From: a virus
Taxonomy: Duplodnaviria > Caudoviricetes
Strand: one strand, 5' to 3'
DNA length: 24,414 bases
Virus record (IMG/VR): IMGVR_UViG_3300020045_005287
Location: 1-24,414 of that record
Each line of letters begins with the position of its first letter. The stretch's first letter is position 1. Position numbers and translations under genes: made by a program. Below the pieces are notes generated by a model. The model saw only the letters and a program-made list of their open reading frames with translations, ran no database searches and was not told the origin of the DNA. Of the stretch, positions 1 to 11,385 are shown in pieces.

Positions 1-119
1 AACGGCCCCGAAATTGCCGCAGTGCGCCACGTTTTATTGAGGCACGAAATAAAGTAAGTGGTGTCCTGCGGTCGAAGGAAACCGGCGCATTGAGGCAATT
101 TGTGTGTTAGCCGCCGTCC
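1..119. repeat. attC-like palindromic recombination site 1 (left edge cut by the window)
   Basis: AAC at 1-3. Arm AAATTGCCGCAGTGCGCC (11-28) pairs with GGCGCATTGAGGCAATTT (84-101), 16/18 Watson-Crick. GTTAGCC core box at 106-112. Confidence 0.7.
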
Positions 120-267
120 GGGCTATGAGTGTTAGCTTTCCTGAGTTTTCGGGGCCGTTAGACCGCCATCAGCATTTGTAAAAAGGAGTGACGTAGGAAC
201 GGTTTTACATTGCGTCTTTCAGTTTTCTTGTTACTAACTAAAGAGTATTATTTTTATTTTTTATTTT

Positions 268-286
268 AGCTGCGGAGCATGTATTT
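268..286 (+). repeat. Conserved 19-bp cassette inner motif AGCTGCGGAGCATGTATTT, copy 1
   Basis: Exact match to 897-915. Both copies follow the T-rich arm and precede the first cargo gene. Confidence 0.9.
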
Positions 287-313
287 GTATTTTTTAACTA
301 TTAAATAAATTTT

Positions 314-607
314 ATGATTACAAAAGAAATTGCAAGACTGATCCATAACTGTTATACAGAGATTGAATCAGCAGAAAAAATGATTGAAGAATTACAAAAG
401 TCATTAAATGACAAAGGAGAGTTTGAATTGAAGGATAACTGGGGTAACTCACGAGGATTAGAACTTCATGTGCCAACAAGCCAGTCTGGGCATTCAATAA
501 AAAGAGTTCCTATGTCTCTCGCTTTAAATGTAATAAAACTACATGTGATTACACAGGAAAAAGAACTTGAAAGATTAAAGGATGTATGTAAAATACAGCT
601 TGCTTAA
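314..607 (+). CDS. Hypothetical protein (cassette cargo)
   Basis: 97-aa ORF with AT-rich leader, located between the cassette arms. Confidence 0.8.
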   Translation: MITKEIARLIHNCYTEIESAEKMIEELQKSLNDKGEFELKDNWGNSRGLELHVPTSQSGHSIKRVPMSLALNVIKLHVITQEKELERLKDVCKIQLA

Positions 608-691
608 TTGAATTTCTGTCTTCTGTATTCGTGGCAAGGGAAAGAAAAAATAAAAAAAATTCCTTTTTCCTATGTAACAAAGGAACTGAAA

Positions 692-837
692 GGATGGCGG
701 TCTAACGCTGTGGCTTTGCGAAGGGCTGATGGCTTTGCACTTCCGACCCAAACCATTAATGCTGCTTGGATTTGTAATTGGCTCAAAATTTATTCAGCAG
801 CCAGCCTTTTGCAAAACCGCTTGTTATGTGTAGTTGT
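692..837. repeat. attC-like palindromic recombination site 2
   Basis: GTCTAAC box (700-706). Arm GTGGCTTTGCGAAGGGCTG (710-728) pairs with CAGCCTTTTGCAAAACCGC (802-820), 15/19 plus three G-T pairs on the + strand. GTTATGT box at 823-829. Confidence 0.75.
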
Positions 838-896
838 GGGTGCTAATTGATGTCGCTGCTATGAAAAACTAAAGTTCGGCTGTATTATTTTTTTGA

Positions 897-915
897 AGCT
901 GCGGAGCATGTATTT
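897..915 (+). repeat. Conserved 19-bp cassette inner motif AGCTGCGGAGCATGTATTT, copy 2
   Basis: Exact match to 268-286. Confidence 0.9.
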
Positions 916-992
916 AAAAGCGGAAACCGCTATGAAATAGCGGCTTCTTATACTACTTAAACACTTAATGGTTTAAAAGCTAAAACAAAGAT

Positions 993-1217
993 ATGGTAAA
1001 TTACGAAGCATTATTAAGAGAAAAATACCTATTAGGAACTCCAAAAGAGCAATATGAATGGGTAGTTAATTTAGTTGAGTTGAACTCAAAGCATGAAAGA
1101 GTTGCAACGTATCTGTTACAAACAGTTCTGGCTTTAAGAGATACACCTACTATTTCAGATACCATAAATGATATGTTGGATATTTCAATAGATGTAAGTT
1201 TAAAATCGCTAAAATAG
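993..1217 (+). CDS. Hypothetical protein (cassette cargo)
   Basis: 74-aa ORF, first of four tightly packed co-oriented ORFs. Confidence 0.75.
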   Translation: MVNYEALLREKYLLGTPKEQYEWVVNLVELNSKHERVATYLLQTVLALRDTPTISDTINDMLDISIDVSLKSLK

Positions 1218-1222
1218 AAAAT

Positions 1223-1474
1223 ATGGATTATCCACAATTAGAAAGAGTAGGAACGTTTTGCATGAAATGCAATCAGGTTGTTTGTATTTGTAAAAATTTG
1301 AAAGATTTTAATAAAAAAGTAAAGACTGGCGAATATGTTATTGCACCTGAATATCATAGTTTATTTGGGACTGTCAAACACTACCTTTCCGAAACTAATG
1401 TAATGATAAGTTGTAATGATTATAACTGCCTATCTGATGCTCAAAAAGAAAAATGTAAACCTGTTTATAAATGA
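1223..1474 (+). CDS. Hypothetical Cys-rich protein (cassette cargo)
   Basis: 83 aa with CMKCNQVVCIC near the N-terminus; ATGA overlap with the next ORF. Confidence 0.7.
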   Translation: MDYPQLERVGTFCMKCNQVVCICKNLKDFNKKVKTGEYVIAPEYHSLFGTVKHYLSETNVMISCNDYNCLSDAQKEKCKPVYK

Positions 1475-1683
1475 ATCCGCATACTAAGTATAGTCCAAAA
1501 GTAAGGGCAAGAAAGATGTATAATGACCATGCTTACTATATGGTTAAATACGGTATAAAAAACGCAACCGAAAAAGCTAAAAAATCAGCTATTAGAGAAG
1601 TTGATGAAATACTTAGCCAAGATTGGTTAAAAGGAAATGAACAATATTGGAATGAGGTAAAAGCTGAAATTGAAAAACTATGA
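1471..1683 (+). CDS. Hypothetical phage protein (cassette cargo)
   Basis: 70 aa; ends YWNEVKAEIEKL, a pattern I recall from small Bacteroidota phage proteins; ATGA overlaps on both sides. Confidence 0.78.
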   Translation: MNPHTKYSPKVRARKMYNDHAYYMVKYGIKNATEKAKKSAIREVDEILSQDWLKGNEQYWNEVKAEIEKL

Positions 1684-1901
1684 CAGATATAGAAGCGTTT
1701 GAAGTATTTGATAAATATTCAGATGAGCCAACAAGGGCAAAATTGAAAATCATGCTGCATACTGTTGGCATTGATAAAACCATAAAAACAATGGTTGAGG
1801 CTTATTCAGGGGAAGGCCAAAAACTACCGTCCGAATTTATAGGCGTTATGAAGCAGGCTTTTACATACATGAGTAAACAAATGGCAGAACCTTTAAATTA
1901 A
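1680..1901 (+). CDS. Hypothetical protein (cassette cargo)
   Basis: 73 aa; ATGA-coupled to the preceding ORF. Confidence 0.75.
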   Translation: MTDIEAFEVFDKYSDEPTRAKLKIMLHTVGIDKTIKTMVEAYSGEGQKLPSEFIGVMKQAFTYMSKQMAEPLN

Positions 1902-2055
1902 ATACAAATGTTGAATTGGAAACTAATGTGTGGCGTGGGCAAAAAAAAAATAATACAGTTATCCGTCTGCCCCATAAATGGTATGCTGGTAACAATTACA
2001 CATAACTCGTAAATATGCGACACTAAGGCTACACGGTGTAACTAAATTGATAACT

Positions 2056-2412: not shown

Positions 2413-3744
2413 ATGAGCGAACAAAATGAGCAGTTAAATTTATCATTGCCGTATGAGGATTTTACTGGAAAAATGGGAAGCCAGGCTTATGCAAAAGCTA
2501 CTTACAAAAGAGGGAATGACGTAATGATTTTCCAAATACCATTTAAGGATATTCTTATTTGGGAAGGGTATAATGCCCGTACAGTATTTGAAAATATTGA
2601 GGATTTAGCAGACAGCATTCACCAACATAAACAAAAAACGCCATTTCAGCTTGTGCTTGTAAAAGAAGGTGATCGGGCTTATTTGAAAAAAGGTGGCCGT
2701 AGGCATCGTGCATACCAGTTGCTCATAGAACAGGGTTTGTTTAATCCAAATGACACTGTTCCATTTGAATTAACCAGCACCAAAGAAACGATGGAAGAAA
2801 TGATTTTGGATTTGCACGTATCGAATCAATATCCTGAGCCATTGAAGCCAATTGATCTTGCCACTGTTGCATGGAGATTAAAGCATCTTTGCGGCGCTGA
2901 AAAATCAAATGAAGAAGTATCTGAATTGCTTGGAGCAAAAAAAGTATCCCGGCAGACAGTTGATAATCTTCTCCTGATATATAATGCAAGTGATGATATT
3001 AAAAATCAAATTCGTGTAGGCGATATGAATATGACCAGTGCGGTATCGTTCATTCGTTCACAAAAAAAGTTAAAAAAAGAAGCGGATAAAAAAGAAGAAG
3101 AAGCAGGGCAATCATCCATGTATGTCCAGCCTGATCCTAAAGACAGTTTAAGGGATGAAGTAGCCGAATTAGAGGCGGCTGAGTTACAGGCAGAGATTTA
3201 TAGGGAGAGAGAGGCCAATAGGAGCAGAATTGAAGCAGAACGGTTAGAAAGAATTGCTAACTATCTTGAAGTTAAAGAAGATGTGCTTTTACAGCATATT
3301 GGCAAAAGGCTTGCGGCAGACGCTACATATAATTGGGTGGAAGATTTTGTAGATGAAGATACCGCAGAAGTGTTTCCGGTAAACAGGACAAATACCGTTC
3401 TTAAACAAGGGGAATTATTGGATGAAAACACAATCAAGGATCTTGTTGGAAGTAATGTAGAAAAGGTTTATGTATTCAAGGAAATCATTCCTACGGCATC
3501 AGTTTTTACGGAACCAGTAGCGGATCCGGAATCTCCAAAATTCGATGTGTCAAGACCAGAAATAGAAAAGATTCAAAAATGTATTCAAGGTGCTGACAAG
3601 GTAGAAGCCATTGTAACAAAGTTGGATGCTCCTGATGACGTAAAAAAAGATATTGCTTTTCAAATATACTGGCTCCAACGAAATCTTTCGGATGTGCGTG
3701 ATTGGGTACATTCCAATAAAAAACAAAATAAAAAAGACCGATAA
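2413..3744 (+). CDS. ParB/Srx-like N-terminal domain protein with HTH, coiled coil and RpoB-insert-like domain
   Basis: YNAR...IEDLADSI...P...GGRRHRA matches the ParB N-domain. NEEVSELLGAKKVSRQTVDNLL is an HTH. WVEDFVDEDTAEV resembles the Bacteroidota RpoB insert. Confidence 0.8.
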   Translation: MSEQNEQLNLSLPYEDFTGKMGSQAYAKATYKRGNDVMIFQIPFKDILIWEGYNARTVFENIEDLADSIHQHKQKTPFQLVLVKEGDRAYLKKGGRRHRAYQLLIEQGLFNPNDTVPFELTSTKETMEEMILDLHVSNQYPEPLKPIDLATVAWRLKHLCGAEKSNEEVSELLGAKKVSRQTVDNLLLIYNASDDIKNQIRVGDMNMTSAVSFIRSQKKLKKEADKKEEEAGQSSMYVQPDPKDSLRDEVAELEAAELQAEIYREREANRSRIEAERLERIANYLEVKEDVLLQHIGKRLAADATYNWVEDFVDEDTAEVFPVNRTNTVLKQGELLDENTIKDLVGSNVEKVYVFKEIIPTASVFTEPVADPESPKFDVSRPEIEKIQKCIQGADKVEAIVTKLDAPDDVKKDIAFQIYWLQRNLSDVRDWVHSNKKQNKKDR

Positions 3745-4180
3745 TGCCCAGACCAAAAGCTATAGATATTGAAATAATTTATCAAGGCGTTTTAAATAAG
3801 GAATTAACCATAAATTCAAAGGGTGAGATATGGCGTATTGGAATACGTTGGAGAAATAGTTCTGGGCAAAAAGGAGTGAAAAAATGCAAAAAAAAGAGAG
3901 CAGAGCATGATACCGGGGATTATCTTCAAATATCGGCATCATATAATGGGGTAGTATATTCCACATGCGCCCATAGGTTAGTTTTCTACCATTTAATAAG
4001 CATCTACCTATGGATATGACAGTCAACCATGAAAATGGCAATAAAAAGGATAATAGGCCTAAAAACCTAACATTGATGTCAGATTCGCAGCAGCATGTAC
4101 ATAGGGTTAGGGTTTTGAAAAATGGGCTAAAAAATTCAATAAAGTTTATTCTGAAAATAACAACGGATATTTTGCAATAG
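3744..4180 (+). pseudogene. HNH endonuclease, frameshifted at about 3992 and probably 3'-truncated
   Basis: The first frame gives GDYLQI...AHRLVFYH. The -1 frame continues FNKHLPMDMTVNHENGNKKDNRPKNL...QQHVH, the HNH core. Confidence 0.8.
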
Positions 4181-5439
4181 CATTCTTATGCGCGAGCCTT
4201 TTTGCTGATTTTATTTATTCCATTCACAGCTGGTTTCCAATGATGAATTCTTATGGAATGCCAAGAACTGGAAAAACAACAATCGCTAGATCAACAGCTA
4301 GAGTGATTTCTTCAACAGCAATGGAGTTTTCCCTTCACGGTGGTACGCCAATCGGTTTGCAACGGCTTTTAGCGCAAAAAAGAAATACAATTGAACTGGC
4401 TGATGAGTTCAGAAATGACTTGGATATGAAAACAATCCAAACATTGAAAAGAGTTTATGACCGTTCCAAAATCCCAAAAGGGCAAATGACGAACGATAAT
4501 AGAACGATTGACACTCCTGTTAATTCGGTTTTGTGGTTCATGGGGCAACACATGTGCACGGTTGATTCAGGAGCATTGCTCACACGTTGTATTTCACGTG
4601 AGTTCATGAAAACAATGGATAAATATACCAATGATGAAATTTTAGAGTATGAAGAGCTGCGCGAGTGGGAAAAAAAAGGTTTATCGGATGTTGTAATCGA
4701 AATAATACGCTCAAGATCATCCATTGAACAAAATTACCTTCATGAATTTACAGAAATTGGTGATAAAATACGTGATGAGTTAAGAGATACAGGAGCAGAT
4801 GGGCGTGTAGTTGGAAATCATATCGTTTTCTTGGCCGTGGTGAAGATTTTAAGCGATAAGTTAAGCTTTCCATTCACCTATGAAGAATTTTATGAAGAAA
4901 TCAAGAAATCCATACAACAGCAATCGCTTACAATTTCCAGCAATGATGATTTAGCTGATTTATTCCAAATGATGGAATTTTTAGCAATGCAACATGCCAT
5001 CAAAATCAATGAAGATTACAAGCTTGAAAAAAGAAAACTTCATATCACCATCGGGCGTGGCGAAACTGAGGAGAAAAAAACGCTTGAATGTGTTGATGTT
5101 CTTTATATCAAAATGACTAGGATTTATCCAATGTATGCTGAACACACGCGCAAACAAGGAAATGATCCTTTGCCTCAATCAACTTTGATTTCCTATTTCA
5201 AAAATCATAGGTCATTTATTGGACCAGTAAAAGGAACCAAGTTTAATGGTGTAAATACATCGGCATTTGCTTTTGATTACAACATTTTGGATATAAGATT
5301 ACCAGGATTAAATGACGAAGTGAAACCTGAAGAAGAAACGCCTGCTCCATACATTCCAAAATCACCACAAATGGAGCAATCAGTTTTGGATTTGGAAACA
5401 TGGCCAGCAGAAAAAGACGATGATGATTTACCATTTTAA
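4111..5439 (+). pseudogene. 5'-truncated phage primase/helicase (C-terminal P-loop helicase portion only)
   Basis: The frame opens after TAG at 4108-4110 with no start codon until 4240. It reads FEKWAKKFNKVY...ASLFADFI...FP, then Walker A GMPRTGKT, Walker B LADEF and VYDR. No primase or zinc-finger domain lies upstream. Confidence 0.7.
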
Positions 5440-7429: not shown

Positions 7430-8542
7430 ATGAAAATCACATTAAGCAGCGGGGAATTATCGAAGAAACTCAATTTTTTGGGAGGTGTAATCGCACCCAA
7501 CAACACAATGCCAATTCTGGACAATTTCCTTTTTGATATTGAAAACAAACAATTGAAAATAACATCATCAGATCTCGAAACCACGATGTCCACCACGATG
7601 GACGTGGATTTTGAGGGCAAAGCAACCGTGGCGATACCGGCCAGACTTTTGATAGAGATTTTGAAAACATTCTCTGAACAACCTTTGGTTTTCACGATTC
7701 AGGAAAACAACACCATCGAAATCAGTTCGAATACAGGACAATATGAAATTGCTTATTTCCTTGGTGAAGAATATCCAAAATCCATCGTGTTGAAAAATCC
7801 ATCATCCACGCTTATACCGTCCAAAATATTAGCCAATGCGATTGGAAAAACGCTTTTTGCCACAAACAACGACGATTTGAGACCGGCAATGAACGGTGTT
7901 TATTTTCAGCTATCGACTGAAAGCATCATTTTTACGGCCACCGATGCACACAAGTTGGTTAAATATTCCAGAACGGACGTGAAAGCCACTGAAGAATCCA
8001 GCTTCATTATGCCAAAGAAACCTTTGGGTGTTTTGAAAGGCATATTAAGCACCTTGGATGAAGAAGTGAAAATTGAATTCAATGAGTCGAATGCGGTGTT
8101 TTCTTTTGGAAATTACATCATTTCGTGCCGCTTGATTGATGCCAAATATCCCAATTATGAGGCGGTTATCCCAAAAGACAATCCAAGCAAATTGATCATC
8201 GACAGAACTTCTTTTTTACAATCTGTAAAGCGTGTGGCAACTTTTTCGAACAAAACCACGCACCAAATCCTTTTGAAAGTGGCGGGAACGGAACTGAACA
8301 TTTTTGCTGAAGATGTGGACTATTCCAACAAAGCCGATGAACGCCTGACCTGTAATTTTCAGGGTGAAGATATCAAGATAGGTTTCAATTCCCGTTTCCT
8401 GTCTGAAATGCTGGGCGTTTTTCAGTGCAACACGATTGAAATGGAATTGTCATCGCCAATGCGTGCCGGAATCCTGAAAGCCGTGGACGGTCTGGAAGAA
8501 GGCGAAGAAATCCTGATGCTGGTAATGCCGGTAAAAATATAA
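7430..8542 (+). CDS. dnaN: DNA polymerase III beta subunit (sliding clamp), phage-borne copy
   Basis: 370 aa with PILDNFLF, SDLETTM, DDLRPAMNGV, ATDAHKL, RLIDAKYPNYEAVIP, IGFNSRFL and terminal LVMPV. Confidence 0.97.
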   Translation: MKITLSSGELSKKLNFLGGVIAPNNTMPILDNFLFDIENKQLKITSSDLETTMSTTMDVDFEGKATVAIPARLLIEILKTFSEQPLVFTIQENNTIEISSNTGQYEIAYFLGEEYPKSIVLKNPSSTLIPSKILANAIGKTLFATNNDDLRPAMNGVYFQLSTESIIFTATDAHKLVKYSRTDVKATEESSFIMPKKPLGVLKGILSTLDEEVKIEFNESNAVFSFGNYIISCRLIDAKYPNYEAVIPKDNPSKLIIDRTSFLQSVKRVATFSNKTTHQILLKVAGTELNIFAEDVDYSNKADERLTCNFQGEDIKIGFNSRFLSEMLGVFQCNTIEMELSSPMRAGILKAVDGLEEGEEILMLVMPVKI

Positions 8543-10947: not shown

Positions 10948-11385
10948 TTGAAAAAAGTATTAATTGGAATTGATCCTGATACGGAAAAATCAGGCTTTGC
11001 CTTAAAATTTGGCAAAGAAATACAGCTCAAAAATTTGACCTTTTTCGAACTTTTTGAAACACTTTCTTTTATAAAACACAATCCAGATTATTCCGGCATT
11101 GAAATTATGGTTTATGTGGAATGCGGCTTTCTCAATGGTGGTAATCGACACTTTCAAGCAGCATCTTCCACGGCATACAACGGAAAAATAAGCGAACGTG
11201 TTGGAGCAAATCACGAGATAGCCAAAAAGATATGTGAAATGTGCGAATTTCTAAAATTGTCATTCACACAAGTAAGGCCAACCAAGTCCAAAACAGATTC
11301 CAATTTTTTCAAACAAATTACCAAAATCACAGACCGAACCAATCAAGAACAACGTGATGCCGCAATGTTGGTTTGGGGATTATAA
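10948..11385 (+). CDS. RuvC-like/RNase H-fold nuclease (putative Holliday junction resolvase)
   Basis: LIGIDPD..SG, VYVE and C-terminal NQEQRDAAML acidic motifs; TTG start. Confidence 0.75.
   Translation: MKKVLIGIDPDTEKSGFALKFGKEIQLKNLTFFELFETLSFIKHNPDYSGIEIMVYVECGFLNGGNRHFQAASSTAYNGKISERVGANHEIAKKICEMCEFLKLSFTQVRPTKSKTDSNFFKQITKITDRTNQEQRDAAMLVWGL

Follow-up and report, generated by a model that had tools for sequence, protein, structure and literature searches.

The window, by which we mean the entire stretch of viral DNA analysed (24,414 bases), carries ParB-like, DNA methylase, sliding clamp, terminase, portal and capsid genes on its + strand. At its left end we identified two attC-like hairpins, each followed by a unit of small genes, then a hairpin-less AAC site and an HTH-like gene (Table 1). 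An earlier note had read this region as an integron-like array. The two palindromes it described (1-119 and 692-837) are real stems, with the correction that these intervals include the flanks and that the stems themselves span 1-108 and 704-825. The complementarity that it reported between 823-837 and 1992-2006 holds at 14 of 15 positions (0.01 matches expected by chance), and the site at 2004 has no hairpin, as it had stated (folding z about +0.3, and no covariance-model match there). It had seen no integrase, and a PF00589 search of the contig (47% complete) was likewise empty.

Table 1. Features of the array and its surroundings in the window.
Feature	Position	Strand	Details
Whole record	1-24,414		Identical to the window; completeness 47%
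Site 1, attC-like hairpin	1-108	+	AAC 1-3, 7 nt spacer, stem, 4 nt spacer, GTT 106-108; contig starts at AAC
Inner GTT flank	106-119	+	Imperfect complement of 692-706 (pairing of the earlier note)
Inverted copy of unit-1 circle junction	147-170	-	147-159 exact inverted repeat of 1-13; 157-170 exact complement of 693-706
Unit-1 inner inverted-repeat block	216-267		71% complementary to 641-692
Leader motif	259-286	+	T run + GCTGCGGAGCA; also at 888-915
Unit-1 cargo, 97-aa protein	314-607	+	No function assigned; virus-dominated family, 81 homologues
Unit-1 trailer	631-706	+	GTGGC/A-run motif, inner block, AAC flank 693-706
Site 2, attC-like hairpin	704-825	+	AAC 704-706, 5 nt spacer, stem, 4 nt spacer, GTT 823-825
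Unit-2 leader	823-919	+	Contains GTT flank 823-837, inner block 880-894 and leader motif 888-915; six more phage loci have a conserved copy
Unit-2 cargo, four small ORFs	993-1217, 1223-1474, 1471-1683, 1680-1901	+	No function assigned; first two also together in one unit in L007
Unit-2 trailer	1895-2006	+	Contains GTGGC/A-run motif, inner block 1944-1958 and AAC flank 1992-2006; five more phage loci have a conserved copy
Terminal attI-like site	2004-2020	+	AAC, 11 nt, CG; hairpin-less; same site in L006
HTH-like gene, 70 aa	2056-2268	+	phrog_575, E 1e-3; occupies the recombinase position of relatives

All five cargo ORFs of the array lie on the + strand. They matched no Pfam family, one PHROGs family that is itself without function, and PADLOC models only weakly; a protein-atlas search placed 314-607 in unnamed viral clusters and returned nothing for 1680-1901. 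DNA methylase-like genes, judged by their translations, are repeatedly found as cargo in the arrays of three related phage loci (L004, L006 and L007). The host is probably a member of the Bacteroidota, judging from the site family described below and because the first cargo protein has a homologue with a Chryseobacterium name.

The DNA folding z-scores of the two hairpins are modest, at -2.6 (+) vs. -2.2 (-) for site 1 and -1.9 (+) vs. -0.4 (-) for site 2. In a terminal-site matrix derived ranking, the 2004 site takes place 13 of 1030 AAC sites, though its core motif is present. The window's best match to this matrix, far above the 2004 site, lies at 11179-11197 within a Holliday-junction resolvase-like gene, with no hairpin near, and is either a chance match or a secondary docking site. 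The hairpins do not look like terminators, there being no U-tract terminators at them, and promoter and terminator scans stayed at chance level; the sole terminator-like hairpin in 1-2450 (927-943) is inside the unit-2 leader, ahead of the first cargo gene. An Rfam scan gave no family at gathering score (best E 1.4), and blastn of 1-2400 against cultured phages gave no match.

Strand polarity and conservation of the sites

We compared the strands of sites in 17 phage loci and 22 host chromosomal loci in a census scored neutrally for G.T and A.C, in which site 1 of the window is assumed to be preceded by a pyrimidine, as seen in L006. The long spacer comes first on the gene strand in all 48 asymmetric phage sites. 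Wobble G.T pairs outnumber A.C pairs by 69 to 26 in phage sites and by 74 to 19 in 49 host sites, and a single oriented G.T lies 15-16 nt before GTT in 42 of 44 phage sites, 14 of 14 metagenome sites, 41 of 46 host sites and both sites of the window. Cargo lies on the site's long-spacer-first strand in 25 of 26 scored phage units and on the opposite strand in 22 of 24 host units. The polarity tracks the site and not the mRNA, and a role at the DNA level is therefore favoured. The flanks of neighbouring sites score at least 8/10 in 25 of 32 phage units, compared to 3.3% of random pairs. The loci have cassettes in common, so these counts are not independent and p-values overstate their independence.

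Covariation in the stems reaches 0.71, vs. 0.17 when shuffled and at most 0.15 when slid. The host alignment has 20 paired columns and no conserved bulge, and the 48 phage sites contain 16 bulges, 13 of them on the left arm; in the model alignment, site 2 has no extrahelical bases and site 1 has one extra base beside the spacer. A covariance model built from 28 host sites only, all on Bacteroidia chromosomes (27 of 32 length-selected sites and one L024 site), found site 2 as the best match in the window (30.6 bits on the + strand, E about 1e-5, and 12.7 bits on the minus strand) and site 1 as the second (17.5 bits, +). The same model matched 56 times in 21 further loci, almost all of them phage, and the site family is common to phages and host chromosomes. 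The proposal of the earlier note that the + strand is the one that folds, with cargo reversed relative to classical integrons, agrees with the wobble census, the oriented G.T and the host-only model, all of which point to the + strand as the predicted folded strand.

Compound structure of site 1

The earlier note had paired 106-119 with 692-706. The two are complementary, but imperfectly, with one gap and one mismatch, and the covarying partner of the AAC flank is instead 157-170, which is the reverse complement of 693-706 at 14 of 14 positions (0.03 expected by chance at 2 mismatches). When the window is compared with L006, an additional base in the 157 flank goes with an additional base in the AAC flank, and the two flanks therefore covary. 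Because 1-13 is repeated inverted at 147-159, with 157-170 complementing 693-706, site 1 is compound. The same layout is found in L006, L012 and L129, with covarying arms that in L012 are altered yet still paired, and in the host loci L018, L019 and L070; our guess is that it may be the trace of an inverted self-insertion followed by a deletion. The search for the unit-1 circle junction that had been suggested is invalid, since the junction string is already present in the linear genome (167-150, minus strand).

The inner repeats of the window and of L006 have different sequences, each complementary to its own trailer. Across loci, inner inverted repeats at unit ends exceed the 95th percentile of the null in 11 of the 36 phage units and 6 of the 24 host units, several of which come from one family. 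Within the unit-1 inner inverted repeat, GTT at 230-232 and AAC at 676-678 form an inner pair, as though newer ends had been placed around an older cassette core.

Gain, loss and exchange of units among relatives

With an 18-nt motif common to both units as the query we identified eight viral loci, of which seven are real; the remaining one, L001, was a chance match in GC-rich DNA and was dropped. The ParB-like neighbour as a query gave no relatives among viral contigs. In L006, site 1 and 157-329 are followed by another gene and then directly by the terminal site and the HTH gene, and 707-2006 is absent. Because L006 lacks this segment and its identity to the window resumes at 2003, with the break inside a common TAAC, we conclude that 707-2006 was cleanly gained or lost inside TAAC; the earlier note had placed the crossover in AAC/GTT and the unit at exactly these positions, and L006 has the same site 1 and terminal site without that unit. 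The empty-site evidence is one genome, since searches with the HTH gene and with the terminal-site pattern found only the contig of L006. The note had named as adverse to its proposal a lack of gain or loss at the AAC boundaries, a lack of further sites, and hairpins that act only as terminators or RNA processing sites. The window and L006 differ at such a boundary, further sites are present in relatives, and the hairpins are, as described above, unlike terminators.

Copies of the unit-2 leader and trailer in other phage loci enclose other genes and are followed by other hairpins, which lie directly past the AAC of the trailer in L003, L004, L005, L007 and L008; the unit-2 ends are 86-97% identical across phages. 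Public-run contigs of related phages cover mainly 712-2006. Eight of 24 listed runs were examined and, among the loose ends listed, six of the eight have other sequence after the unit-2 trailer, with divergence right after 2006 in X1, X3, X5, X6 and X8 and after 2011 in X12. In all the runs examined the contigs are those of relatives, and no run covers half of the stretch, so that missing cover at 1-700 or past 2006 carries no evidence. Loose ends at 826 place site 2 ahead of another unit. One X3 contig (depth 2) joins 2006 back to 712 via six other letters, which fits either a circle or two tandem cassettes.

Hairpins do not stay with one unit. Six copies of the unit-2 leader stand behind five different hairpin bodies, and one hairpin body was found with different left spacers. 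The upstream flank is kept in none of the four scorable same-body pairs, which supports crossover at AAC, and a common downstream 40 nt is found in only two of five such pairs (at our own threshold). Cargo has also been swapped at inner motifs (885-919 and 1943-1948). A plain integron model does not predict so loose a link between hairpin and unit, and a second layer of exchange is needed, perhaps homologous or top-strand recombination.

Several of these observations could be accommodated if the mobile element were the GTT...AAC-bounded unit itself, including the long inverted repeats at its ends. Xer-like recombination on double-stranded DNA would then move it with no need for folding, and the hairpins would be separate, exchangeable spacers. 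The 14-bp and inner inverted repeats (beyond the null's 95th percentile in 11 of 36 phage units), the same unit ends behind five different hairpins, the loose ends at 826 and an enzyme without I2 (see below) all fit this explanation, which we nevertheless consider unlikely: hairpin and unit were gained together at AAC between the window and L006, no scorable same-body pair keeps its upstream flank, and the oriented G.T and the 20-bp covariation mark one strand.

T4-type PeSL cassettes are a known case of module shuffling through homologous recombination at intergenic motifs. The hairpins could be RNA processing or stabilising stems that head genes, with modules shuffled, as in those cassettes, by homologous recombination at common intergenic motifs, an explanation to which we assign a low probability. 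The G.T-rich strand is the mRNA strand in phages, the common leader and trailer motifs act as breakpoints, and some ORFs start inside hairpins; however, host sites have the same G.T polarity on the template strand, breakpoints fall at a 3-4 bp core where flanking homology is absent, the hairpins lack U-tract terminators, and the unit-specific end pairing and the recombinase at a fixed distance are left unexplained.

A recombinase beside the terminal site in related phages

In L003, L005 and L008, a recombinase of 290-298 aa with PF13495 and PF00589 domains lies right after the array on the + strand; a search with the family alignment finds 1154 proteins at E<=1e-40. Among 35 distinct upstream regions of the phage clade, 32 have an AAC with CG 11 nt later, 37-57 nt (mostly 40-43) ahead of the recombinase start. 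The scan of relatives for a tyrosine recombinase that the earlier note had recommended thus yielded an enzyme of about 290 aa some 41 nt beyond the terminal AAC in 32 of 35 loci. In the loci tested, among those listed, the terminal AAC is complementary to the flank of the last hairpin. The window's site at 2004 has the core motif of this terminal AAC, with the HTH gene adjoining in place of a recombinase. In a quick tree of the recombinases, whose only IntI sits on a long branch and which includes no Xer outgroup, the phage clade is weakly separated (support 70), and we draw no order of events from it.

These enzymes differ from IntI, which the earlier note had named as the enzyme of integron attC sites: array-adjacent enzymes score 105-127 bits against TIGR02249 (IntI), for which the cut-off is 265, and the spacing from KG.KDR to H.LRH is 64-69 aa (in 40 family rows that match the pattern; 6 rows do not), compared to 107 in the IntI of L181, i.e., about 42 residues shorter across the I2 region. 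The same gap appears in an alignment with IntI4 (2a3v). It is accordingly most improbable that the array is an ordinary CALIN served by a classical host IntI integrase. Its AAC/GTT cores and the divergent enzyme position do match class 1 geometry, and IntI1 recombined 5 of 6 phage attC sites tested (PMC9892861), but the adjacent enzymes fall far below the IntI cut-off and are some 42 residues short, true IntI matches only 1 of 301 genomes of the host class, and the sole tested site with the spacer geometry of the window, P12002L_attC1, was the one that failed (PMC9892861).

Searches of five array-bearing records found this recombinase in G003 only; G004, which is 98% complete and has five sites, has none. 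The window's array might be inactive, a relic that was either captured from a host array or outlived its recombinase, with no recombination now in this phage. The absence of the enzyme from both the contig and G004, the host type of the sites and the imperfect terminal motif are compatible with such a relic, but the cargo orientation is opposite to that in hosts, the unit-1 cargo family is virus-dominated, identity of the unit-2 ends across phages is 86-97%, and L006 and the window differ by one clean unit, which together make this very unlikely. What these observations show is recent activity in the lineage, not in the window genome itself.

Among cultured phages, Polaribacter phage Leef_1 encodes the enzyme (35% identity), with a terminal AAC lying 57 nt ahead of it, and four of its sites score at least 29; Ingeline_1 has the enzyme and one clear site; and P12002L has nine candidate sites, all on the gene strand, with no match in the enzyme search. 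In P12002L (L184) a hairpin-less terminal site occurs twice (about 29170 and 37245), and the published attC2 is its reverse strand. We also observed long sites of 177-196 nt with loops that hold the start of a cargo gene (L182, 5598-5774; L183, 5178-5368; L184, 31118-31313).

Host arrays and known systems

Matches to a host recombinase of the family at E<=1e-50 occur in 156 of 301 genomes of its class. Sites lie downstream of a co-directional enzyme in 13 of 20 host regions that we picked from the top matches on long contigs; in 1 they are upstream in a divergent layout, 1 region is doubtful and 5 have none; the layout is also divergent in the host loci L018 and L019. The layout of the 13 is that of rAID-1 arrays of Bacteroidales, for which a XerD-like recombinase, small genes in a row and recurring intergenic motifs 'reminiscent of integrons' have been described (Ross et al., 10.1101/471110; PMC12247911). 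They are defined by a recombinase >44% identical to BF9343_RS08045 and located 5' of >=2 co-directional genes, a cargo GC <=41% and a repeated intergenic motif, and the accessible parts of these descriptions give no hairpin or crossover (10.1101/471110; PMC12247911). The 13 host loci carry sites of the window's family. By contrast, the recombinase is 3' of the cargo in phage relatives and absent in the window, and the immunity-gene cargo of rAID-1 is not found here; this distinction is by layout. The cargo GC of the window (30-34%) lies below the rAID-1 limit, which is uninformative since the whole window is at about 35%.

With classical integrons and CALINs the array shares AAC/GTT cores, complementarity of neighbouring flanks, a covarying stem, a one-strand G.T bias, which in integrons is a feature of the attC bottom strand (PMC5027507), and a hairpin-less candidate docking site; as in classical integrons, the enzyme of the window's relatives is transcribed away from the array. 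It differs from them in an enzyme without I2, stems mostly without extrahelical bases, unequal spacers and a fixed G.T. In addition, the end complementarity covers 13-15 bp as well as inner blocks, a unit holds up to four genes, all cargo is reversed, and the hairpin stands at the head of its gene. Phage attC clusters have been reported by Qi et al. 2023 (PMC9892861), including attC-like sites without IntI in the Bacteroidota phage P12002L, of which P12002L_attC1 has the same geometry; there, two P12002L sites were tested and divergent directions noted, whereas we find nine candidates on the gene strand, and the accessible text describes no cognate enzyme or reversed cargo. Integration of CTX-phi by XerCD likewise uses a folded single-strand site without extrahelical bases and an enzyme without I2 (PMC4792948), but with host XerCD at dif and one genome, in contrast to a dedicated family beside multi-cassette arrays. 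Host arrays of such a layout (rAID-1) and phage attC clusters (Qi 2023) are thus already in print, whereas the literature searched, which omitted most subscription papers, yielded no account of phage arrays that combine reversed cargo with an enzyme lacking I2.

Taken together, the array appears to work like an integron, yet it is not an IntI integron, nor, by layout, rAID-1. We regard it as probable that 1-2020 comprises two gene cassettes in a row and a docking site in a phage likely of Bacteroidota, with insertion and excision at the AAC triplet likely carried out by a short tyrosine recombinase predicted to use the folded + strand. Weighing against this explanation are the lack of a recombinase in the contig and in G004, circle evidence consisting of the single X3 joint, which could be tandem cassettes, the loose link between hairpin and unit, the cargo swaps at inner motifs, weak folding z-scores of single sites and the rank of the 2004 site.

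Proposed mechanism and implications

From the sites and enzymes we infer single-strand hairpin chemistry, in which the enzyme would exchange one strand at the AAC of the folded + strand. The second exchange would be blocked by the unequal spacers (5-7 vs. 2-4 nt) and not by flipped-out bases and the I2 helix, and replication would resolve the junction. A unit (hairpin, cargo and AAC flank) would leave as a circle, with the 14-bp and inner inverted repeats lengthening the stem. The reversed cargo could reflect phage transcription reading through the array toward the docking site. For the window phage, the enzyme would act in trans, from the host, a co-infecting phage or the unsequenced half of the genome.

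More broadly, and tentatively, Bacteroidota phages may have an integron class of their own, a possibility that we take seriously while stopping short of calling it probable: an I2-less recombinase lineage would swap hairpin-headed, reversed cassettes by single-strand recombination, a site code common with host arrays would let enzyme-less phages borrow the host enzyme, and new cassettes would arise from reused end frames with exchanged hairpins and cargo. If true, such arrays would be a living model of a pre-I2, phage-linked integron ancestor and of cassette creation.

The I2 domain has been called essential to integron function (PMC8138268), and the IntegronFinder authors did not accept I2-less recombinases near attC sites as integrases (10.1101/030866). 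The finding of an enzyme without I2 at a fixed distance from the docking site, together with precise cassette gain and loss, challenges I2 as essential and fits the idea of a phage-linked, Xer-like integron ancestor, on which there is speculation in print (PMC4792948). For phages, such arrays would be a defined route to mosaicism. The 'integrases' of cultured flavophages have been taken as signs of a temperate life (PMC8776804), and our results suggest that they may be cassette enzymes; as Leef_1 and P12002L are in culture, the cassette question is directly testable.

Outside phages, the TnpF beside tet(X3) on pHH1107 (L185, 3067-5088) is a shortened recombinase of the host family (49% to L024), at whose locus the site detector found no full hairpin site; the same protein is also found on many Acinetobacter plasmids.

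Elsewhere in the window, the DNA polymerase sliding clamp gene (7430-8542) is full length. ORF 3744-4019, which we take to be HNH-like, seems to be continued in another frame (4010-4180), and the ORF at 4240, presumably primase/helicase-like (both judged by motifs), is apparently a C-terminal part only.
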